From contig MU006099.1 of the NCBI GenBank assembly GCA_010093705.1, positions 124,001 to 188,000 on the forward strand: 64,000 bases of DNA. Direction: 5' to 3'. Positions 19,313 through 51,262 of this stretch are shown here, piece after piece. A program made the translations under genes and the position numbers. This DNA is from Patellaria atrata CBS 101060 (taxonomy: Eukaryota). The notes below the pieces were generated by a model that saw only the letters and a list, made by a program, of their open reading frames with translations, was not told the DNA's origin and did no database searches. How positions within the stretch are numbered: position 1 is the first letter of the stretch; each line of letters starts with the position of its first letter.

Positions 19313-20339
19313 TGGTGATCCATAGGTAAGGACCAAAGAGAAGATAGGGGTTGTAAGTGAAGAAGGGAGGAGTACAGGTAGGTAGACTAGGAAAAAAAGA
19401 CCCCGTCGTAAAAGCAGAAAGTAGCATCTAGGACTTTGATCACATGAAAGACGTATAATAGTATTACTTGCTGACTTTCAGAAGATTACGCTTGGCAGCG
19501 ATTGACTTTGTTGCTCACCTAACCCAAAGCTCATCCAGCACCAAGAACATCATAGCCCTCACACTTTAACACAACAACCATCAAAATTCATTTCCGCTTT
19601 TTAAACTCTGCAAACATTTTTCTATCTCCATTCTCTTTGACATCTAGCTTAATTGTCTCATTTTCATCCACTGCATGCTGTAGAGTCCCCCTGAGTCGCG
19701 TCACCGTCGACTCAGCGGAGGTATCTATCCAGACAGATGTCGGAGCAGCACCGCGCTTTATGTAAGTTGTTACTAGATCTTAACGATCTAGTAGATGGTC
19801 CTCTTCTTTTGTGATAGATCTCAAAGCTTTGAGATGTCTAGAGATCATCTAACTCTGTCGGAAGATGTGTGGTGCTCCTCTCCCTCTAGAGGCAAACACC
19901 AAACTTTAGCTTCATGCTCTTTGTCTCTGCCAACGATGAGCTTGATAATACTAAGGTATGTATATCTATGATGATTTGTACTAACTAGCAAAGCCGCAGG
20001 GCTGAAAAGTCTTGTTGCGGGCGCCACTTTGTGGAAGCCCATAGAACGCGTAGGTCGGAGTAGGTAAAAACCTTCGTGACTGCACCACAACAAACCCAAA
20101 ACAACTTTTCTTGTAAGTCTTCTCAACACCCAACCTTCTCTTACTTTTTCTATCGCGCGTCCATAATAACTTGAATCTCTTATTAGATGCAACATGCAGA
20201 CTTGCAACTCCGCTAAGGAATAGCAACTCCAGCGACTTCATCGCTGTCAGGATGCAAGTTAAAGACTGGTCCATGGCTACAACTCTGTAAGTATCTCAAG
20301 CTTCCCCCTATTATTACCTCAAGCTATCCTTTGATGAAT

Positions 20340-20394
20340 GCTTCTAACTGTTGACCGCTTCTCACTGTTAACTGCTTCCCACTGTCGACTGCTC
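20340..20394 (+). repeat. 17-bp unit x3 (GCTTCYMACTGTYRACY)
   Basis: gcttctaactgttgacc / gcttctcactgttaact / gcttcccactgtcgact. Confidence 0.8.
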
Positions 20395-21664
20395 ACTAAT
20401 GGTTATGACTTTGCTGCTCCGGTGGCTTTGTTGACATTTGTGATACTCTTCCAAAACCCCAACCCCTTCTCTTTGACTGACCCACATAGTCTTATTGCTT
20501 TGAGCGTTGGCTGACTAATGAACTTCATTAGATAAATACCAAGAGTCTCTTCATTGGAAATACCCCTCGCTGGTTTCGTTGGCTGTAAAAATAGTAAGTC
20601 TTTTAAATGTCCCCGCCAGTACGTACACACATCGTGGGTATGATGAACCTAGAGTAAACTGCAAAAGCCTGAACTCAAAAAGCCATACAAGAAGGCCCGT
20701 TTTCTCTATCCCGTAAGAATGCTGGGAGAAAAGTAATGGCAACAACAACAAATCCAGTTCTTGGTACCTGCTCACCTGAGTAAGAACCATTTCTGGTATT
20801 GGCTCTCACTTCACGTTGGTTGGGGTTCTATCAAATAACCACCGACCTCGTGAAAATTGTGAGAGACATCATATGCAGAATCAATGTCGACTCTACTTGA
20901 CCCACATTTCTTGATCTTGGTGCTTCTTCGAGTTCCTGGTAGACTTGGCTAACACTTATGATTGACCCTACTCTAGGTTGAGCGTCGAGCTGATCCGAAG
21001 CCGGGCATTGTTGGAGCATACCACCGCCTGCTAGGTACGCGCCTCTTTCTTCTTTTTGTGTCTTATGTTGACCATTGGCTAATACTTATCGCTCTTGTCA
21101 CTCCAGGTTGATGATCGACCAAACGGGCGCTCGATTATGGACATATGCCACACGTTGGTATGTACTCTTTTCCTCCTTCTTTCTCCCTTCCCCGTTTTAT
21201 TATAATGATGGCATTGTAACCTAGGCATGAAAAACTAGAGACGCTCTGTTACTTCTCTATGCGTACAAGTTACCAAACTCTAGTTTGGCTTATCGGAATC
21301 TTTCAAGTCTTTTCGCAACTTGTTGTTATCTTTACTAGAATGAGCAATAAGGCTAATGGCATCGTCGCGCAAGCACTTCTCTTTAGATTTTCCGTTTGGA
21401 TTGTGCACATCTCCCGAGACTCCCTCCTAGCTGACATGGATGTCGCCGGCCCTGAAGTATACTTCTTAGTATTTATGATGGTTGTCATGAACTTTGTAAG
21501 TACCAACTCTTTTTCCCGTACGTTTTTACTAGAATTGTTTGGATAATCTCTGGCTATTTCCTATCTCTTTTGCTTTCATGTCTTCATGTCTTCATGTAAT
21601 GTAATTTCCTTAGGCAACAGCTAGCTTTTCCTCAACAGGTCCTTGCACGATATTGCAATAACTG

Positions 21665-21693
21665 TCCTCCTCCTCCTCCTCCTCCTCCTCCTC
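21665..21693. repeat. (TCC)n microsatellite
   Basis: Perfect trinucleotide run. Confidence 0.95.
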
Positions 21694-22077
21694 TTCTCCA
21701 TCTACTCCTGCTTCGAGCCTTCAACTCTTCAACCCTTCATCCCTTCGATTGAGTCCACTACCCACCCCTATAACTCTACGCTTCAGTAGAGCCGAAAGAG
21801 AAGGAAGATGTATTAGGTTCTCAGGAACACAACCAAGAGGCGGAAATGGCACAACACAATCGGGAGTTCGCACCGAGGAACTCGTGCTGCAATGAAGGAA
21901 CAGGACACCCTAACAGTCTTAGCTTTCTGACCATCTAGGGTACCAAACATCAACGCCCGACTTAAGCACGTCTGTAAACCGCTCAATCGATCCTCCAAGA
22001 GAGTGAATGCTCCAGACAACGTCTCCAGTGCTTTCAATCTTAACTAACAGTAAGTCAACACCCTGTTACCCCTGAAA

Positions 22078-22147
22078 TCCGGGTATGACGAGAACCAATT
22101 TCCAATGGAAACTCAACGAGCTCTATGCTAGATGTTCCGACTGAGGA
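22078..22147 (+). ncRNA. Candidate intronic C/D snoRNA
   Basis: Donor GTAAGT 22050; C box ATGACGA 22085; D box CTGA 22141; flanking TCC/GGA. Confidence 0.5.
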
Positions 22148-23435
22148 CAAATAGAGCTATTCGGATTAAACACTCGCCTTTCTTAATCACATTCGCTATG
22201 ACTAGTCAGAACATAGCTAACCGGTATAACCAGTGTCTCCTTCCGACAAGAATCTCCTCGTCTGACTTCTCTGCGTTATCGTTCCGGAGTGGCCACTGAC
22301 AACTAGAGCTTTAGCACTCCTGATTCTGCTTCCGACTTCACCCATTATCTGAAACCGAACGGAGTAGGTCCTTTTTCTCTAAGAACTTCTTTCATTTCAC
22401 ATGATGACAAAACAAAACACAACCGGTAGAAGGTCGATTGGATTAAGGGTCAAATGTCCCTGGGGACATGGCCTGTTACTATTACCGCTGCCAATCACTG
22501 TTGTTGGCTAGGACGAAGGGTCAAAATGGATCCTTAACTTCTCTAAAAGCAGGTCCGTCGACTGTCCAGACTGAGTTCCGTACGCGGTTCCATGGCTTGT
22601 TATTTTAAATTTATCTAATCAAGGATTCACCATTCCAATCGTATCTCTCTTCGTTGTCTATGTTCTTGAGCTAAATGCCAAATAGGTTTGCAATATCATT
22701 GCAGTCGGCTGGAGTGTTCCATCACCAACTCTCACGGTGTAAGTACCTTTCTTATGCGGCACCTTGCACTTTGAAATGATGATATCCACCCGCGATGGAA
22801 GTTCCTAATGAAAGTTGATACGGCATAGTAGTCCTGCTGCCGGCCACACTATCCCATGTGTCACTGGCAAGGATGAGGCGCCAAAAGGGCTTCGCGAGAA
22901 ACCCATTCTGTCAGCTTTTTAAGGTGGTTATTTCTGCGTGGGTTTGAATTGCTACATATCAGCTTTTGACCATCTGATCGACACCACCATATGCCCTTTC
23001 TTCGGTTCGATGTTTAACTTCCGGACTAACTGCTGGTTTAGGTTCACGATTTTATGGATGGCTAGGCTCTTCCTAGAGTAAGTTCTTTTCTCCTGTCGTC
23101 CCCATTCAAATTCTTCATGATGATCAGCCAAAACACCATCGAATGGACGTTCTTTATGAAACTTCCCTAAGGCGTACTGTTCCCATTGTCGATTAGTCTT
23201 TACTTGAGTCTTTGGCAGAAATGAGTTATGCTGAAGTGGTATTCCCCTTCCGTGGGTATGATTTGTGGTTCTGGATTCCTTTAGGGGGTTTAACATTTCT
23301 GATGGAGACTCCCTATTTTCGCTCTTTCGCCTCGTTGTTTGATTCCTTGTGTGACTGCTCAAGTAGGTCCGCGGTATCGTCCACGATCAAATTACTATCG
23401 AGTAAGTCATTTTCCTTAAACCCAAAATCAAGATT

Positions 23436-23529
23436 CCGAATGATGATCAAAAACCAAAAAAAAAAAAAACCAAAATCAAGAAAGTCTGAGAACGATGTTG
23501 GATGATTTCATCTCAATGGATCTGACCTG
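23436..23529 (+). ncRNA. Candidate intronic C/D snoRNA (A-rich, possibly decayed)
   Basis: C ATGATGA 23440; D' CTGA 23486; C'-like TGGATGA ~23499; D CTGA 23522; branch ACTAAC 23576. Confidence 0.55.
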
Positions 23530-23663
23530 CACTATTCCCCTAGCTTTCTTCCACGTCGGCTATTGAAGAGTTTCGACTAACTGCTACAGCAGGTTCGCGA
23601 TATCGTCCGTCTTCTAAATTTCCATAGAGCAAGTTCTTTCTCCAATCACCATACCCACTAGAT

Positions 23664-23731
23664 CTCATATGATGAAAGGCATGATTTTCTGAGAACCGTG
23701 TTCCATGATATCAGTTTCAATTCTGACCAAG
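23664..23731 (+). ncRNA. Candidate intronic C/D snoRNA, subfamily A copy 1
   Basis: C ATGATGA 23669; D' CTGA 23689; D CTGA 23723; branch GCTGAC 23775. Confidence 0.6.
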
Positions 23732-23861
23732 GCCGCACAACTATTTATCTCTGCGTCGCTACTTAAACTTCTTTGCTGACTACTAGAGCAGGTCCATGCT
23801 ATATCGTCCGTGTTCCAGATTTCCATAGAGTAAGTTCTTTCTCCAAGCTTTATACCCGGAT

Positions 23862-23930
23862 CTCGTATGACGAAATTCAAGATTTTTTGAGATCCGTGTT
23901 CCATGATATCATTTTTCAATTCTGACCGAG
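23862..23930 (+). ncRNA. Candidate intronic C/D snoRNA, subfamily A copy 2
   Basis: C ATGACGA 23867; D CTGA 23922; terminal stem CTCG/CGAG; paralog of 23664-23731. Confidence 0.6.
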
Positions 23931-24065
23931 GCCGCACAACTGTTTATCTCTGCGTCGCTACTCAAACTTTCTTTGCTGATGACTAGAGCAGGATCATGCC
24001 ATATCGTCCGCGGTAATTTGTCTAAGGTAGGTTTTCCGTACGAACCCCTTTCCAGTCGTTCATCG

Positions 24066-24138
24066 CTGTCATGATGAGAGTGTTTACATATGAGAAATTA
24101 TGTGGAAAACAATCGTTCTTTTGGAACTATCTGAACAG
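24066..24138 (+). ncRNA. Candidate intronic C/D snoRNA
   Basis: C ATGATGA 24071; D CTGA 24131; perfect terminal stem CTGT/ACAG; branch TCTAAC 24182. Confidence 0.7.
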
Positions 24139-24333
24139 GCAACCTGATGTTGTATCTTTTCTGGCAATTGGAGTTCCCACCTCTAACCACACAATGGAAA
24201 GTAGGCCTTCAATATCAGCCGGGATCCTTTCGGAAAGGTACGCATTGTTTCCCAATCTTTGTACGAATGACAAGTCCGAGTCGATGACCGTCTGCAAGGT
24301 ACCTGTTTAAACCATGTCTTTCCGATAAATGAC

Positions 24334-24419
24334 GGCTGCCAATAATGATTAAATTATTCTTCTCCTTTTGACCAACGTTGAGAAATCGAATACGTCTGAA
24401 TGGCACCTCTAATGTAGCC
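24334..24419 (+). ncRNA. Degenerate C/D snoRNA copy, subfamily B (probably inactive)
   Basis: C ATAATGA, D' TTGA and D CTAA are each a single transition from consensus; stem GGCTGC/GTAGCC; alignable to the next two units. Confidence 0.5.
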
Positions 24420-24556
24420 AGTATATCTCAAGACTATTTCTAAAGCTTGAAGTTTCCTCTGCTAACTGATAGAGAATAGGACTTACAATATCATCCTCGG
24501 CACCATTCCCCTCAATAAGGTACGTGATTTAACCGTCTCTTTCTGTGGAATTTGAC

Positions 24557-24640
24557 TGCCAATGATGATCAACCTATTCAACTTCTTTTTTTGACAGGCG
24601 CTGATAAAAAAGAATATGTCTGAATGGCATATCTGAGGCA
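24557..24640 (+). ncRNA. Candidate intronic C/D snoRNA, subfamily B
   Basis: C ATGATGA 24562; D' CTGA 24601; D CTGA 24633; stem TGCC/GGCA; branch GCTGAC 24687. Confidence 0.72.
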
Positions 24641-24783
24641 ACCAACATATCTCTCAAGACTGTTTCTAAAGGTTGAAGTGTCCTCTGCTGACTTGTGAAG
24701 AATTAGGACTTGCAATATCATCCTCCGCAACGTTCCCGTCTGTAAAGTACGTGATTCAACCGTCTCTTTTCGTGAATTTTGAC

Positions 24784-24869
24784 CGCCGATGATGATCAAC
24801 CTATTCAACTTCTCCTTTTTTTGACAGGCGCTGAGAAAAAGAATTTGTTCGAATGACAGATCTGAGGCG
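24784..24869 (+). ncRNA. Candidate intronic C/D snoRNA, subfamily B
   Basis: C ATGATGA 24789; D' CTGA 24831; D CTGA 24862; stem CGCC/GGCG; branch GCTAAC 24917. Confidence 0.72.
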
Positions 24870-25020
24870 ACTAATCTCTTTCTCAACATTGTTTCTGAAA
24901 GCTTGAAGTGTTCTCCGCTAACTGATATGGTGAGAACAGAACTTGCAATACTATCCGCGGTCATCTTCTCTTGCAAGGTACGTACTCAAACATCTCTTTT
25001 TGTGAACTGTGATGGGAGTT

Positions 25021-25099
25021 CTGATGATCCACATAAATTCTTGGACTTCTTATTGAGACTTGTGTGTCGTTGAAAAAAAACGTTCTGGACCAGATCTGA
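25021..25099 (+). ncRNA. Candidate intronic C/D snoRNA (diverged)
   Basis: C CTGATGA 25021, 43 nt after the donor; D in CAGATCTGAGG as in subfamily B; no clear stem. Confidence 0.45.
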
Positions 25100-25268
25100 G
25101 GTAGACAGCTAGCATAATATAATTGCTAATAGATTTGAACCGATCACTACTTATCGATTTTTCCAGGATTAACGCGAGCGGCCTGGATGCGAACAGTCGA
25201 GCTATTTCACCGTTTAAACGGTCGTAATGGTAGGTTTCCCCTTTTGCATGCCCATCTCCTGAAACTGT

Positions 25269-25355
25269 TTGCTGTTATGATGGTCCAAATCTGTTCTATG
25301 CTGATCTGAATCTTCAATGACGAAAACACGGATCCAAAATTGTCTGAACTAGCGA
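25269..25355 (+). ncRNA. Candidate intronic C/D snoRNA
   Basis: C-like ATGATGG 25277; D' CTGA 25301; C' ATGACGA 25317; D CTGA 25344; stem TTGCTGT/ACTAGCGA with one bulge; branch GCTAAC 25397. Confidence 0.6.
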
Positions 25356-25734
25356 GCTAGTGTCGTGTCATTTTTATTGTTCTTTAAGCGATCACTGCTA
25401 ACCCCTTTGTCCAGGGATTACTCGAAATGATCGAACGCCAATATTTCCAGTCGGGATATACATCGCATCGCAAAACGTTGTAACGGTACGTATGATTACT
25501 GTCCGTCAATAGAAAATGCCTCTCTCTGTAATGAACTAGACATTCGACTTTTCGAATTTATCGTGAGAATACCAAATCAATTTCTGACTGATCCATTTGA
25601 TTTCGTTGTAAACATGAAGTCAAGCAGTGCTAACAATGCGACCAGGTACACATTTCGTAGATAGTCGGAGCGGTGGACGCAGGCGAACACAGTGGTATGT
25701 ATCTTCTTGCTTTGTTTATCCTAAAGCTTTTCCA

Positions 25735-25824
25735 GTGGCCATGAAGTTCAATTGAACTATTATAAGGTCTTTTGACACCTTGAATGAAAAAAAAGCCCTA
25801 GTTCGTAAAATTTATGACGGCCAC
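25735..25824 (+). ncRNA. Candidate intronic C/D snoRNA (variant boxes)
   Basis: Perfect 6-bp stem GTGGCC/GGCCAC enclosing C-like ATGAAGT 25741 and D-like ATGA 25814; branch GCTAAT 25868. Confidence 0.5.
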
Positions 25825-25969
25825 GGGTCTCTTCACATCGCACCGATAAAACTTTTGACGGAGCTGTGCTAATTACTCTCCGCAGGTGAAAACTTGATAA
25901 ACCAGAGGGAGAGACGCATCGCGCACAATGGTACGTATTTCCCTTCTTCCTAATACCATTGTCGTAATC

Positions 25970-26049
25970 ATAATGAGCAAAGATCCTTCCCCACTTGACC
26001 TCTTCATGAGAACAGCACATTGGAATTCCCAATTCGAGAGTGAGACTGA
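25970..26049 (+). ncRNA. Degenerate intronic C/D-like unit
   Basis: ATAATGA 39 nt after donor 25931; CTGA 26046; branch GCTGAT 26095. Confidence 0.4.
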
Positions 26050-26214
26050 GCAAGGTTACTGTTACTGGTCCAGACTGAAATGAATGCTTATTGTGCTGAT
26101 TATCTGGCCGAGTGAAAAGTAGAAAAGCCGTGTAAATGTGGGCCAGACTTGGGATCCAAACATATATCATGGGAAGTATTTCTGTTTTTTTGTTGTCAGA
26201 AACCCCCAGTGCGT

Positions 26215-26298
26215 ATGGTGAATGCCTAAATATATTGGCTTCTCGAGATTCTTGAGACAATCCGTGAGCACAACAAAGGCTGTACGAGCCATTTCTGA
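26215..26298 (+). ncRNA. Degenerate intronic C/D-like unit
   Basis: ATGGTGA 39 nt after a weak donor at 26176; CTGA 26295; branch GCTAAT 26347. Confidence 0.4.
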
Positions 26299-26465
26299 CA
26301 AAATACGTGTGATATCGCAATGAACATGAGCAGCAGACGGAGCAGAGCTAATCGTTCTTCCAGGTGAAAACTCGATAAACTTAATGCTCGGTATGGAGAG
26401 TTGGACGCAAAACCATGTTGCGTAACGGTACGCGTCTTTTTCTATTTGTTCAAGAGAGACCTCGG

Positions 26466-26555
26466 CAATTATGATGCTATTGAGAAATCGACGGTATTTT
26501 GATTCCAATGGATCCTGAGGAAACGCCATATTCGATTCAATGACTGATAGAATTG
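26466..26555 (+). ncRNA. Candidate intronic C/D snoRNA
   Basis: C-like ATGATGC 26471; D CTGA 26544; stem CAATT/AATTG; branch GCTAAC 26597. Confidence 0.5.
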
Positions 26556-26789
26556 ACCCAAGACCCTGGTAGTGTTGAAGGTTCGGAATGAGCAATGCTA
26601 ACCGGTAGGTGACTAGGGAGTCTACCTCAAAGTGAGCTGCACATACACGAGAAATGGCCCATCGAGACTTTATTTTGCACAGGCACGAAGATGTTCTTGG
26701 TTGCATTCATATCCAAAGGTATGTGAATCTCAATTACATGCTCAGCTAGCTTCCCCTGCGGTAGGTGAGCAGAACCGGCACTAAGAAAA

Positions 26790-29100
26790 CGTTAAGATTT
26801 CAGAAGCTGCTCGTCGGAATGGTGTTCTGGATCCGTCACATCAACCGCATCGATTGAGTGAAGTAGGGTTGCAATAGTACCGACGGGTGACTTGATCTCC
26901 TTTCTTCCAAGTCCGCCGCCAAGTACCACATCATCTCCATTATCCAATACATACACGTCTGAAGATCCACAGATCAATCTCCATGATGACCCCACAGATG
27001 CTCGTAGAGATATCGTGAGCATGCTCCCGATAGTGGCTATTATGTTGACTGTTTTTGCACGCTCATTTAGGCTCCTCATTCTCGACCCTGCGAGCCAACC
27101 CTGATGGAAAGAGTTTTCATGTGTCCAACAAGCCGCAGGGTTCTTAGGCATCTCAGTGTAAGACCGTCCAGTTGAGCAGAAGAGTGCAAAGGTCGGTAAT
27201 GAGTAACAGTCGCCCGGGGAAAGCATATAAGATGAATTACGAGCTTGCAAGAAGATGGTAAGTCAGCTCCTCGTTGTGGCATCAAGTACTCTTCCAGGTA
27301 CAAAGGTCGAATCAACAAATGTTTCTGTGTTCTCCACGAAGAAATAAGTTGAAAGACCATACATATCCGTGGGGTTTGTGGATGTGCCATACAGTGGGTT
27401 GTGGATGTTAGTAATCCGGTAAGCAGAACTGACGGGAAGACTGTACCAACCGGTTCTTCCAATCCCGGATGATAAGTTCACGTCGGCTTCACATATTACT
27501 GTTCCCAACGACAAGTCCCTTTAGAGTCTTGCTCTTTAGAGACGGCGGGTGGAGTTTAGTGTTTCTGATGGGTCCCTAATAACAGCAGTTGGATCTTGGC
27601 AATTTGGTATATAGAACTGCACGGAAAATTGCACTCAAGGACGGTCTTCCAATCCGGATGATGAGTTCATGCCAGCTTCACTAAGATTACTTCCAACGAC
27701 AAGATCCTCCGGGGTTTGTTTCCGAAGCTAGCTAGTGAAGCTAGTGTTTCTGACGGAACCAACCGACTATTCCCGGGCGGACATTTTTTTAAGATGGTTT
27801 GTTCCTTGATTTTTGAGCAAGGAATGTAGAGATTCCTATCGAATGAAGAGCTTGATACTTACTGGAATATTGATGATATGAGGTCTTTTGAAAGTGGACT
27901 AGTGCCCACCGTCGTGAGGAGTATCATATTCTCCGGGAAATGATGGACTTCTTCCCGAACGATTGAACTGACCTGAGAAATTATCACTTTCAAGAACGGC
28001 TTCCTTACATGGAATGTCCTTCATAGATCGTCAGTGACGGTTGCTCTGACCGGAAATACTGGAAGTGGAATGGTTCCTTTGCTCATTAAGAAGTTCGTTA
28101 CTGTTAGTGTACAAATGCCGGAGTGGAAGTTTAGTCTCTTGAAAATGACAGGGAAGGAAGAATCGGTCTGATGGAAGGGAACGACGGACCAAACTGACTA
28201 AAGGAAGAAAGAGTAAAGAATTGACCAAAGGTTCAGGACCGAGGAGCTTGAGACGCCATAAAGAGCATGAAATATCGCCACAGAATGTACAACTGACTGG
28301 ATATAGTTTGACAATGCAGACAAAGTAAAAGATCAGATGTAAGTACAACTGTCGTGGTATGAAAACTAATGACTTGTGACTAGAGTGACAGAATGGAAGC
28401 AAATCGATATGAACTGAAGACATTGTGACTGGCAAGCGCACGCACTTACGGATGACTAGGATTAAGGAGGACAGATTGAGGAAGCCGAAGTTGCGGATTA
28501 AAGGATAATAGGTCTCGCTGCAGGACGCTATAAGTTCTGGGACAGAATAACTAGTGATCCAATAGAAAGTACAAGAGCAGAAAAAGGTACTCGAGAAGCG
28601 CAATGAACTTAAGAGAAGCACAAGATGGAGGACAAAGATATGGGAGAAATTTCTCTAGTTCCACAGAGACGGTTTGAAAATAAGGAAGGAAATGATGAAA
28701 GGACGAATGACGCCATAAAAAAGACTGGCAAATGATTACTTGGGAGGATACTGCCCTTAGGTCCGACTGCCAGCTCGTAGGTAGGACTATTTCCGTTCCA
28801 ATGTCCAAAGCCGAACCTTCACTGGCTGTTAATATTTATGCAACTTCGATATACGATGATAGCAAACCCTCATAGCAACTCCCCAGTGTTTTCTTCTAGA
28901 TAACACCACCGCGCACTCTGATTCCTTCAGTACTAATATGTCTTTTGTTATGTCCGTTAGGAGGCGCGGACTTGAGGATGGTTGCCTGAATATATGGACG
29001 CCCTTTCTAATACTGTCGTCGCGATTGGAATGGATGAACCTAAGGCGCGTTGTGGGAGCACACATTACGTCCGATCATGGTGCGTTTCGTCGGCGGAGTC
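26790..29100 (+). pseudogene. Decayed long low-complexity/charged coding sequence with internal direct repeat
   Basis: Protein-like frame (SFLPSPPPSTTSSPLS..., later E/K/D-rich) interrupted by scattered stops and frameshifts; ~120-bp imperfect repeat at ~27451-27573 and ~27641-27760. Boundaries approximate. Confidence 0.4.
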
Positions 29101-38760: not shown

Positions 38761-39166
38761 AGCTAGAGGGGAGGCAAAGAACATCCCACGCCACAATCAT
38801 CCAGAAATTCAATGTGTTTACCCAGCGACAATTGTTATTGAGGGGAAGAAACATTCCATATTGAAACCTGTTCATGCCCTTCTTCTACCCGTTAGTGACT
38901 CTGTTGTTCTGTTTCTAAACACTCCTCTCCTGCACGCGCAAATTCCTATTTTCGGACGCCACGACTGTCATCACGCTGCAATGTCTCGAAAGCAACTTGA
39001 GCGCCGGTGAGCAAAAGTGACAAACACCACCTTTTTGTATATCAATACCTTTCTAGCTCACCTCTTTACCCTCTATAACTACTCTAAGCTCCTCCCTCCG
39101 CTCACCCCAGAAATAGTATGCTACCTGACATCGTTCGTCTCATGTAACTCCATCGCTCGTTCTAGC

Positions 39167-42100
39167 ATGAGCGCAGCTCCTCCGCTTCCTCCTCCGCAAC
39201 CCTCCAACTTTGCGATGAACGGACATGGTCCCAATGGAACCTCTCACACTGAGCGCCCCGGTCCTATGCCGCGCGTATTCCCGCACATAAAAGACTTGCA
39301 GGCGAAAGCGCTGCAAAAAATCAATCCATATTCTTCCATAACTACCCTAATACAAGAGGCGGAGAACTGTACAAAACAGGCAGACACATTCGCCGATTTT
39401 CGCCGCCCCGATCTTGCATATGTTGAATATTTGGTTGCTTCGGAGATCGTGCTCAATGTTATACCTAGGCATAAAGATGCGCCCTCAGTGGCTGGGGATC
39501 GGGGTCGCCTTCATCGTCAAAACAAGGACCTCCAAAGAAGGATAGACGCCCAGCATGAGAGGTTCTCGAATATCAAAGAAATTATAATCAATCAGAACCG
39601 AAGAGATGGAGTACAACCGACAGTCTCTTCATCTCAGGCTGCAGAATATCGTCAAAGGCCCTCGACCCCCAATGCCCAACCGCCGCATACAGCAGTATCA
39701 TATGGTGACAATCCGCGATTGTCTATGCCAGATGGATTTCCCTCTCAGGTCTCCATCTCATCTCCCCCTCGCAGAACCCCTGCATATGTTTCAAAAGCCT
39801 CTGATGGTAGGACGTCCCCATTGATGCCATTAGGATCACCAAGGGTAAAGCCACAGATTAACCCAAAGCCAGAATCACTTCAAGATAGGCCATCTAGTAG
39901 CGGATCCTCACACCAGGATCCACTCAATGAACGATTTGCAAGACTAAGAATGAATGGCAATTCATCTTTGTCTGGATCGAGATCACACCATGATACGTAT
40001 GGCGCGAATCGTCAGGTAAAAATGCCATCACCTACTGACTACGGAGGAGACGTATCATTTCCCTTAGTACCTACCGATGCTCCTACCAACCGACCTTCTG
40101 GTCCTCGTACCATGCCTGATGCCCCGCTACTTCCGCCTAAACTTCCAATAGACACCAGTGTTGCGTTTTCTTTACCAAAACAACCTAGTCCTACTTATAG
40201 CCCTGCGAGAAACATGCAAACTCCAGCAAGTATAAATCCTCCACGGACATCTGCTCGGAGTATGAACGGTACTGGTGGCCGAAGCAATTCCATAGCTTCA
40301 GCGTCGTCAAGCATATCCTCTCGTCCACCAGGTGTCAACGGAGATACGGATTCCTACTTCCCAAACCCTGCAAATGGAGCACCTCGGCATGCCTCAACGC
40401 AAAGGAATACAATCAATATGCCAATAGAGTACTCTATAACTGCTGAAAAGCTCTATGACTACCTCAAGATGTACCACATCCTGCTTATTGACGTGAGAAA
40501 TCGCGAGGACTTCGACCAGGGTCACATATACGCACGGTCCATAATGTGCGTGGAGCCAACAGCTCTTCGGCCGAGCATGTCAGCTGAGGAGTTAGGAGAC
40601 TCGCTTGTTCTATCACCAGATGATGAGCAGACAATGTTTGATAGACGGGATGCGTTCGATCTAGTGATTTATTACGACGAGAGAACAACTACTACAGATT
40701 TCATTTCGAAGAATGGTCGAAATGAAGAAGAGATTGCCCTGAAATGCTTGTATGATGCTCTCTATGAGTTTAACCAAGACAAACCATTACAGAGAGCGCC
40801 AATATTTCTCCTTGGGGGGATCGGAGCATGGGCAGATTTACTCGGAAGAGCAGCACTTGCCACGTCTAATACCAGCACTATCGTTTCATCCCAAAAATCT
40901 GGAAAGAATTCTCGTCCAATTGGCAGAGTGCCAATGGCGGGAACCCGCTCCACGATATATGTCCCGAAACAGCGGCGCAGATCATATAATCCACTACATC
41001 CTGAGGAAGAACAGAAATGGATACAGCAAGCAAGAAAAGAAAGCTATGCTGTGGGCCAGAGGCCTGCCGCCATCGATGAGTATGAAGCTGAAGAGCAGGA
41101 AAGCGTCCCTATATATCGCACAACTGAAGACTTCCTCCGGCGGTTCCCCGAAGCACCGTCTCTCGAACAAGAATCCATGATTTCGCCTCCAACACGGTCA
41201 GCGCCTCCTGTTCCCCCTAACTATGCTCCTCCCTCTATTCCATCAGAACCTTCACGCCCTGCACCTGCGGTCGCGCGCGTTAATTATAGTGGTGTTCATG
41301 ACCGATCCGCATCTCAAACTGTAACCTTGGGTAGATCCACTAATCTACCTAACTATATCCCCCCGAGTCAAAGGCTACAAAATGTTCGCTTACCGTATAC
41401 TGGTCTGATTAACTTTGGCGTCACTTGCTACATGAATGCAACCATTCAATGTCTCAGCGGCACGATCCCCTTAACTTCGCTTTATCGTAATGGTACTTAC
41501 GAGAAGTATATACAAGAAGGCAATTGGAAAGGAACTAAGGGTGCAATGTCAAACTTTTATGCTGCCCTCATTCAAAATATTTGGAAAGGTGATGTTAAAC
41601 TATGTCGACCATCATCCTTACGTGTAAGTACCCTCCTCCATCAACCCCCCGCCCCCGAATTAACGGTCTACTAATACTGCACAATCAGAAATTTTGCGCT
41701 GTGAAGAAAGATCAGTGGGGTGAGGATCAGCAGCAAGACGCCAAAGAATTCCTAGAATTTCTTCTCGAGTTCCTTCATGAGGACCTCAACGTCAACTGGT
41801 CTCGTCCACCTACCAAGGTCCTTAGTGATGCAGAAGAGGCTCAACGGGAGATGTTTCCGAAACCTTATGCAGCTATCATAGAATGGAAGAGGTATACCAA
41901 TCGTGAATCATCACTTGTTCAGGACCTTTTTGCCGGTCAACACGCCAGTCAACTACGTTGTAAAACATGCGGCAAAACATCTACGACATATGAAACATTT
42001 TTTGACATCAGTGTTGAGATTCCCCGCCACGGTACTGCTTCTATTTACAACTGTCTAGACAGCTATTGCGCTGAAGAACGGCTCACGGAAGGTGATGAAT

Positions 42101-51162: not shown

Positions 51163-51262
51163 NNNNNNNNNNNNNNNNNNNNNNNNNNNNNNNNNNNNNN
51201 NNNNNNNNNNNNNNNNNNNNNNNNNNNNNNNNNNNNNNNNNNNNNNNNNNNNNNNNNNNNNN
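51163..51262. other. Assembly gap (100 N)
   Basis: Run of N. Confidence 1.

Follow-up and report, generated by a model that had tools for sequence, protein, structure and literature searches.

On the + strand of a 64,000-nucleotide (nt) stretch of the genome of Patellaria atrata CBS 101060 (GenBank assembly GCA_010093705.1, contig MU006099.1, positions 124,001 to 188,000 of the forward strand; hereafter the window), we found an array of about 20 units that resemble small nucleolar RNAs (snoRNAs) of the box C/D class. The locus is probably an ascomycete non-coding, multi-exon snoRNA host gene with one box C/D snoRNA-like unit per intron, and, judging from its sequence, we consider it rather likely that this gene carries working units side by side with decaying ones. 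All coordinates refer to the window, and features lie on its + strand unless another strand is named.

The original prediction for this locus had described 14 modules at 23402-26608 (M1 to M14), all of which we found again, with donor-to-C-box offsets identical to those listed before. As a measure of the array, however, 14 was too small a number: four units lie upstream (Ua, Ub, Uc and Ud, with donors at 22050, 22364, 22739 and 23078) and two paralogous units downstream (N1 and N2, with C boxes at 27469 and 27658). Our model of the host transcript runs from about 22.0 kilobases (kb) to at least 26.8 kb, with box-bearing units continuing downstream; the gene probably reaches about 27.8 kb and is presumably transcribed by RNA polymerase II. 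Eighteen of the 20 introns in the model (22050-26803) contain one unit each, and N1 and N2 sit in two further predicted introns. The two remaining introns of the model are short, were predicted from sequence signals only and are empty of snoRNA-like units (22580-22685 and 26719-26803). Joined together, the 19 exons of the model amount to 998 nt; each frame is interrupted by 9-15 stops and no open stretch exceeds 124 codons, in agreement with the earlier claim that intron-encoded box C/D-like units are borne by a non-coding host.

Splice signals, boxes and their spacing

The layout of the modules is far from chance. Counted from the donor, the C boxes of M1 to M14 follow at 38, 40, 37, 44, 43, 42, 42, 43, 47, 42, 46, 39, 39 and 43 nt, where the offset of M5 is taken from GTACCT at 24299 and that of M13 from GTATTT at 26176. 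Together with the GCAAGT of M2 (23629), these two are non-standard donors, and M5 has a better one, GTACGC at 24238, 61 nt upstream of GTACCT, from which the C box would lie 104 nt downstream. Junctions were predicted from donor, branch and acceptor motifs. We measured the association between donors and C boxes by counting GT[AG]NG[TC] hexamers that were followed, 35-50 nt further on, by the start of an exact RTGATGA. This was the case for 7 of the 27 hexamers in 22000-26700, compared with 1 of 165 elsewhere on the + strand (at 20594, just upstream) and 0 of 180 on the - strand, which bears out the placement of C boxes relative to donors that had been proposed.

Compared with the RTGATGA consensus, the C boxes of the 18 units from Ua to M14 are exact in eight cases, carry one mismatch in nine and two mismatches in one (M11); further downstream, the C box of N2 is exact and that of N1 has one mismatch. 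In shuffled sequence, the best heptamer of an 11-position window was exact in 4 of 5000 trials and had one mismatch in 125 of 5000. A CTGA D box is present in 18 of the 20 units, being absent from Ub and degenerate in M11. Among the 16 units having both a D box and a branch motif, 13 place them 45-55 nt apart (the exceptions measure 29, 65 and 75 nt), a spacing that, as originally suggested, fits splicing-coupled processing. Terminal stems of at least four pairs, with G-U allowed, close 10 of 17 D-box units and also N1 and N2; all six stems named before were present. Stem sequences vary among the units, yet pairing is maintained in these 10 of 17.

Since the modules are paralogous, the 14 coincidences of layout are not independent, and the sounder argument is that boxes were retained while their flanks diverged. 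Box columns hold 1.5-1.7 bits of information and flanks about 0.3 bits, the D-box value being partly circular because the alignment was anchored on CTGA. In a strict scan, a C box with at most one mismatch had to be followed by CTGA at a distance of 55-115 nt and closed by a stem of four pairs or more. It returned 8 distinct C boxes in 23.1-27.8 kb; the remainder of the + strand gave 5 and the entire - strand 9.

Ribosomal RNA targets and known RNA families

Complementarity to ribosomal RNA (rRNA) was assessed against 106 fungal ribosomal DNA (rDNA) loci, which were fetched from metagenome contigs via the ITS1-F primer and belong to fungi other than the host. One of these metagenome loci, L075, includes complete 18S, 5.8S and 28S genes. 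Its small-subunit (SSU) and large-subunit (LSU) sequences are 1975 and 3743 nt long, compared with 1831 and 3401 nt for the Rfam models, and probably carry insertions or introns; owing to this extra length, L075 coordinates are not transferable to yeast numbering.

The D' antisense element of M1 (23471-23484) is perfectly complementary to 18S rRNA over 13 nt, or over 14 nt when 12 of the loci are considered, and a single nucleotide separates its end from the D' CTGA. Among 48 CTGA boxes, no other had an anchored match of 10 nt or more to conserved rRNA; an anchored match of 13 nt was reached by 19 of 2000 shuffles. The complementary segment, CUUUCUUGAUUUUG, belongs to the conserved 18S core; in most loci the ITS1-F primer site is found about 486 nt downstream of it. 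If M1 acts as a guide, the residue predicted to receive 2'-O-methylation is the third U of CUUUCUUGAUUUUG. As counted from the guide sequences in the supplement of PMC2780460, this U is located about 20 nt 3' of the 18S-Um1227 site of Neurospora crassa CD44, which would put it, as an estimate, near position 1250 of budding yeast, and it is absent from the N. crassa sites in Table 1 of that paper. Between the C box and the antisense element of M1 runs a stretch of 14 A residues (23456-23469), where sequencing contigs are apparently cut.

M1 keeps the array from being entirely orphan; the other units showed nothing above background when compared with the rDNA of other fungi. A 13-mer of Ud (23189-23201) is complementary to conserved LSU rRNA in 22 of the 106 loci, within a segment to which the D' element of N. 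crassa CD39 is also directed. The 13-mer is 65 nt away from the C box and does not adjoin a standard D' box, and about 0.4 exact 13-mers would be expected by chance (an estimate). The 12-nt LSU complement of M12 (25985-25996) occurs in only 1 of 106 loci. We rejected a 14-nt LSU match on the - strand (27418-27431) as a guide, as it sits at the + strand donor of N1 and has no - strand boxes. Read on the + strand, these 14 nt are identical to the LSU sense strand of L075 (1403-1416), with about 0.2 such matches expected by chance, again an estimate. Guides aimed at the host transcript were likewise rejected, the best complements (8-10 nt) being the same as those of reversed-guide controls.

Searching the whole window against Rfam gave no gathering-level hit. 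Five smaller, permissive scans, which jointly covered every unit, returned weak sub-threshold matches only, mostly to C/D families and driven by the boxes, as was the case for M4, whose matches are weak and box-driven only. The best of them were snR61 (RF00476) at M9, with 25.6 bits versus a gathering score of 45, and Z159/U59 at M7, with 25.1 versus 39. None of the matches indicates a known conserved cluster, in keeping with the original prediction. Identification of N2 as a U3 gene was rejected, with Plant_U3 scoring 21.6 bits versus a gathering score of 80 and the alignment resting on the C/D boxes and the closing stem. M9 resembles snR61/Z1/Z11 (RF00476; N. crassa CD38) in the order and spacing of C, D', C' and D and in some flanking words. 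It differs in a C box that ends in G and in a D' antisense element interrupted by a 2-nt insertion, so that the 25S target of the snR61 family would go unpaired; the D' element gave no match of at least 10 nt to conserved rRNA, which leaves M9 outside this family. Ud shares start and end words with N. crassa CD52; this likeness and that between M9 and CD38 come from comparison by eye and are unquantified. No transfer RNA was found in the window.

Tandem duplication, working units and decay

Judging from the repeats that it contains, the array grew through successive tandem duplications of a module consisting of an exon and an intron with one snoRNA. Local alignment of exons plus 5' intron flanks yielded 22 of 210 module pairs with a z of at least 4, compared with 3 of 210 for donors elsewhere in the window, upholding the tandem amplification proposed before. 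These pairs form two groups, Ud-M1-M2-M3-M4-M5-M8 and M9-M14. Direct repeats comprise M2/M3, with a period of 200 nt and 85-95% identity, and M5/M6/M7, with a period of about 227 nt, M8 being a more distant relative of the latter. Among the snoRNA bodies, 11 of 136 pairs reached a z of at least 4, and likeness is limited to M1/M2/M3, M5/M6/M7(/M8), Uc/Ud (z 6.5) and a small number of weak pairs. The antisense element of M1 recurs in mutated form in M2 and M3. Ten short exons (33-53 nt) in 22686-24977 have a motif in common, GCAATATCRTCCNCGG, near their 5' ends. The word AATATCRTCC, allowing at most one mismatch, has 19 matches in the window, 6 of them in these ten exons, and 0 of 100 shuffles reached 19. 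Transition:transversion counts between paralogues range from 15:12 to 30:13. We rejected repeat-induced point mutation as the cause of divergence, as the TpA/ApT ratio (0.70) and the (CpA+TpG)/(ApC+GpT) ratio (1.18) of the array are like those of the rest of the window.

By the known pathway of intronic snoRNA maturation, each intron would be spliced out and debranched, Snu13, Nop56, Nop58 and fibrillarin would assemble on the C/D motif, and exonucleases would trim the RNA to a protected species of 60-100 nt, or of about 190-205 nt for Uc and Ud; the spliced exon chain, with its stops in all frames, would be a by-product. The units with canonical boxes, namely Uc, Ud, M1, M2, M4, M6, M7, M8, N2 and perhaps M14, probably form stable small nucleolar ribonucleoproteins (snoRNPs). 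Ua, Ub, M3, M5, M9-M13 and N1, in which core boxes have changed or antisense elements have been lost, are probably decaying duplicates. The original prediction needs correcting in this respect: core boxes are altered in roughly half of the units, in which decay may be under way. From the state of boxes and antisense elements we conclude that the array would be a mixture of working and decaying units, and a mixture of this kind among duplicates therefore suggests a birth-and-death process in which duplicated snoRNAs lose, and possibly change, their targets.

M6 and M7 are identical at 30 of 31 positions between the C box and D', compared with 32 of 40 in the exon, 35 of 42 in the 5' flank and 41 of 53 in the 3' flank (about 77-83%), which may be a sign of selection on an orphan antisense element. 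This element is common to M6 and M7 only, and many near-identical copies sharing one antisense element were not found.

Several observations weigh against a host gene with working units. Half of the units (10 of 20) have altered core boxes (UGAUGA) or no D box, and the donors GTACCT, GTATTT and GTATAT are weak, with GCAAGT adding a non-canonical GC donor. No Rfam family attains its gathering score. Conserved 10-mers, present in at least 8 of the 106 loci, gave 19 matches on the + strand versus 17 on the - strand control, and matches of at least 11 nt to L075 rRNA numbered 8 on the + strand versus 12 on the control. When all 315 kb of the rDNA loci were searched, spacers included, 13 of 100 shuffles reached a 14-nt anchored match, so that the significance of the M1 element hinges on a search confined to the conserved rRNA core. 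Finally, the identity between M6 and M7 could be explained as a gene-conversion tract.

In the mammalian SNORD116, SNORD115 and SNORD113/114 arrays, a non-coding host is made up of tandem modules of exon and intron, each intron holding one C/D snoRNA; the copies are numerous, nearly identical within each array and mostly without rRNA complementarity. The likeness to SNORD115/116 that had been drawn for the present locus holds for its tandem non-coding modules with one C/D unit per intron and for the lack of rRNA targets in most of them. It does not extend to near-identical copies: only two small subfamilies exceed about 80% identity here, most bodies have diverged beyond detection, and M1, unlike the mammalian copies, carries a canonical rRNA guide. 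Imprinting and tissue-specific expression are not applicable to a fungus. Taken further, the array could be a fungal counterpart of the mammalian orphan arrays, that is, an actively transcribed nursery of new box C/D snoRNPs whose antisense elements drift from rRNA and of which some, such as those of M6/M7, are selected for non-ribosomal or lineage-specific targets; we put this forward tentatively and regard it as doubtful. A tandem array of about 20 units, most of them lacking targets and part of them eroded, would reveal ongoing snoRNA birth, target loss and decay within one locus of a possibly tractable microbial eukaryote, giving an experimental handle on the function of orphan C/D snoRNAs and on the origin of SNORD116-type arrays, both of which are hard to study in mammals. 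If the units are not expressed, the locus would be a mere relic of modest interest.

In a more pessimistic reading, which we hold to be unlikely, the locus is for the most part a graveyard: functional snoRNPs would come from M1 and at most one or two further units, and the rest would be pseudogenes, surviving within introns whose splicing continues or within a transcript that has ceased to be processed. The altered or missing boxes agree with such an end state, as do M3 and M5, visibly eroded copies of M2 and M6/M7, the insertion in the antisense element of the snR61-like M9, and rRNA complementarity that is nil beyond M1; between M2 and M3, moreover, the 3' flank (95% identical) was kept better than the snoRNA body (86%). 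What speaks for working units nonetheless is that, of 18 C boxes, 8 remain exact and all but one have at most one mismatch, despite flanks that have diverged to background, that the spacing from D box to branch was retained in 13 of 16 units, and that M6 and M7 are so much more alike from C box to D' than in the adjoining segments.

The array might instead be an ordinary conserved cluster of canonical rRNA guides, a counterpart of snR72-78 or of other known families, whose targets we missed because the rRNA was heterologous. Its architecture is like that of known fungal clusters, as far as the available text of PMC2780460 and PMC5824354 goes, M1 is a canonical 18S guide, and the Ud 13-mer falls on the LSU segment of the CD39 D' element. 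Known modification sites, however, lie in the conserved rRNA core, which is present in the 106 loci, yet a single CTGA box out of 48 was matched over at least 10 nt; complementarity showed no strand asymmetry, and guides in Table 1 of PMC2780460 pair over 10-17 nt, almost always free of mismatches. With Rfam matches that stay below threshold for every unit, we consider this alternative highly improbable.

We give least credence of all to the units not being snoRNAs, but either box-like words inherited from one ancestor in a repetitive non-coding or intergenic region, or parts of an antisense protein-coding gene: shared ancestry does make the recurrence of motifs at fixed offsets non-independent, and antisense open reading frames (ORFs) of 132-186 amino acids (aa) overlap the array, but the boxes far exceed their neighbouring columns in information content, the terminal stems are maintained while differing in sequence, the M1 guide matches conserved 18S, and the antisense ORFs look unlike protein. 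None of nine tested ORFs (seven antisense, one sense and one upstream on the - strand, outside the array) matched Pfam, and the longest antisense ORF over the array (186 aa) had no atlas hit and an atlas recognition score of 998, a level typical of non-proteins; on these grounds an antisense gene was rejected.

Returning to the array as a host gene with working and decaying units, its general architecture is not new for fungi, which corrects the original prediction. According to the available text of PMC2780460, N. crassa has UHG-like non-coding hosts (clusters I-V) with one box C/D snoRNA per intron. These resemble the present locus in coming from a filamentous ascomycete, in having multiple exons with short ORFs only, and in how far the snoRNA lies from the 5' and 3' splice signals. 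The differences, and with them the novelty of the array compared with the known fungal hosts described there, lie in its size (about 20 units), its paralogous modules, the lack of any Rfam family at threshold and the single unit with a placed rRNA element, 19 of 20 units having no recognisable conserved target or Rfam family.

In the available text of a 2018 fungal survey (PMC5824354), the snR72-78 cluster of Ascomycota is polycistronic, keeps a fixed order of families, and spans about 1.5 kb with up to seven genes, and fungal snoRNA families generally have one sequence per organism. According to the text available from that survey and from PMC2780460, orphan C/D snoRNAs are few in fungi and clusters hold no more than about seven conserved guides; the present array is about three times the size of the largest fungal cluster that we found in print. 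It shares with snR72-78 the arrangement of several box C/D snoRNAs on one transcript; none of the snR72-78 families was found here by Rfam, and their antisense elements were not seen in a by-eye comparison with the N. crassa homologues. Full-text searches of the literature, which did not extend to the supplements of PMC5824354, where paralogue-rich loci may be listed, gave no published case of a tandemly amplified, mostly orphan snoRNA array in a fungus.

Individual units and surroundings of the array

In the following, offsets of C boxes from their donors are given in brackets. Ua (22050-22233) has a GTAAGT donor, a C-like ATGACGA at 22085 (+35), CTGA at 22141, GCTAAC at 22216 and the acceptor AG at 22233; it is a weaker unit, with 75 nt between D box and branch and a terminal stem of just 2 base pairs (bp). 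Ub (22364-22552) combines a GTAGGT donor and an exact ATGATGA at 22401 (+37) with the lack of a CTGA D box, and is probably defective or not a C/D RNA. The next two units are larger. Uc (22739-23041), an intron of 303 nt, would give a C/D-like RNA of about 205 nt, with ATGATGA at 22776 (+37), CTGA at 22974 and the branch motif ACTAAC at 23025, 51 nt from the D box. In its predicted fold the ends meet and enclose a structured core, with z=-2.0 and an equally good fold in 7 of 200 shuffles; we count this among the signs of function. Ud (23078-23366), an intron of 289 nt, would give a C/D-like RNA of about 190 nt, with ATGATGA at 23117 (+39), CTGA at 23299 and a 5-bp stem; its fold was no better than those of shuffles.

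M1 (23402-23592) has its C box at 23440, D' and D CTGA boxes at 23486 and 23522, and ACTAAC at 23576. Its paralogue M2 (23629-23791), likewise a paralogue of M3, is a predicted GC-AG intron with a GCAAGT donor, a C box at 23669, D' at 23689, a C'-like ATGATA and D at 23723. The close paralogue M3 has GTAAGT (23830-23835) where M2 has its GC donor (23629-23634), so that M2 is either spliced as a GC-AG intron or has had its donor disabled recently. M3 itself (23830-23991) has the C box ATGACGA at 23867, a D' box degraded to TTGA, D at 23922 and a 5-bp stem. M4 (24027-24204) follows with a GTAGGT donor, ATGATGA at 24071 (+44), CTGA at 24131, the stem CTGT/ACAG and TCTAAC at 24182.

M5 (24238-24479) is an eroded copy of M6/M7, with the C box ATAATGA at 24342, CTGA at 24396 and the 5-bp stem TGCCA/TGGCA. 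It has lost the CTGA equivalent to the D box of M6/M7, and GTACCT at 24299 stands in the place of the paralogous donor. The 61 nt at 24238-24298 begin with the good donor GTACGC, continue with a partial copy of the shared exon and end at the degraded GTACCT; this segment resembles what would be left of a module after deletion of the snoRNA. M6 (24520-24706) carries ATGATGA at 24562 (+42), D' at 24601, D at 24633 and the stem TGCC/GGCA, and M7 (24747-24939) carries ATGATGA at 24789 (+42), D' at 24831, D at 24862 and the stem CGCC/GGCG. M8 (24978-25166), with CTGATGA at 25021 (+43) and CTGA at 25096, is a more diverged member of the M5-M7 group; only 29 nt separate the M8 D box from the branch motif.

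In the second half of the array, M9 (25230-25414) has ATGATGG at 25277 (+47), D' at 25306, the C' box ATGACGA at 25317, D at 25344 and an 8-bp stem. M10 (25486-25645) shows an altered core C box, GTAATGA at 25528 (+42), next to CTGA at 25584, GCTAAC at 25629 and a stem of 2 bp. The weakest boxes are those of M11 (25695-25885), with ATGAAGT at 25741 and a D-like ATGA near 25814, enclosed by the 6-bp stem GTGGCC/GGCCAC. M12 (25931-26122) has ATAATGA at 25970 (+39), a possible D' box TTGA at 25995 and CTGA at 26046; M13 (26176-26363) has the weak donor GTATTT, ATGGTGA at 26215 (+39), CTGA at 26295 and GCTAAT at 26347. M14 (26428-26608) closes the originally predicted series with a GTACGC donor, ATGATGC at 26471 (+43), D' at 26515, D at 26544, the stem CAATT/AATTG and GCTAAC at 26597. 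The same C-box variant, ATGATGC, is listed for the cloned N. crassa CD47 and CD51 in the supplement of PMC2780460.

N1 (27419-27588) has a GTAAGC donor, ATGATAA at 27469 (+50) and CTGA at 27565; its D box lies about 10 nt from a branch-like CCTAAT, a layout unlike that of M1-M14. Its paralogue N2 (27607-27760) has a donor-like GTATAT, ATGATGA at 27658 (+51), CTGA at 27750 and the stem TCCG/CGGA; no 3' splice site could be assigned to it. Boxes and adjoining blocks are kept in both, likewise a sign of function. In N2 (27599-27759), the stretch after the C box pairs with the stretch before the D box, and N1 retains part of this stem via a G-U change.

Upstream of the array, 20594-21400 contains more short intron- and exon-like pieces, with an exact ATGATGA at 20640, 46 nt past GTAAGT at 20594, and ATGATGG at 21204, 46 nt past GTATGT at 21158. 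Exon-like segments at about 20978-21034 and 21108-21157 are similar to each other, and the region is without a canonical D box or spacing; these pieces may belong to the 5' portion of the host gene described here or to another host. A (CCT)n microsatellite at 21661-21692 lies about 360 nt upstream of the first unit donor, and contigs of two genomic runs break there. These contigs, from at most one sample, contain no joints, an observation that carries no information on expression. A scan of 21400-22100 for bacterial-type promoters and terminators, a type of scan not applicable to a fungus, gave nothing, and a telomere-like ACCCTAA at 21907 was uninformative as a promoter element, with 9 matches in the window versus 7.4 expected. 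Over about 9 kb (19500-29000), none of the nine tested ORFs matched Pfam, an unusual finding where fungal genomes are compact. Upstream, an ATG at 19738 followed by GTAAGT may mark a short coding start. Elsewhere in the window, 39011-41671 encodes a UCH/rhodanese protein whose nearest atlas cluster is in Ascomycota, and 51163-51262 is an assembly gap of 100 N.

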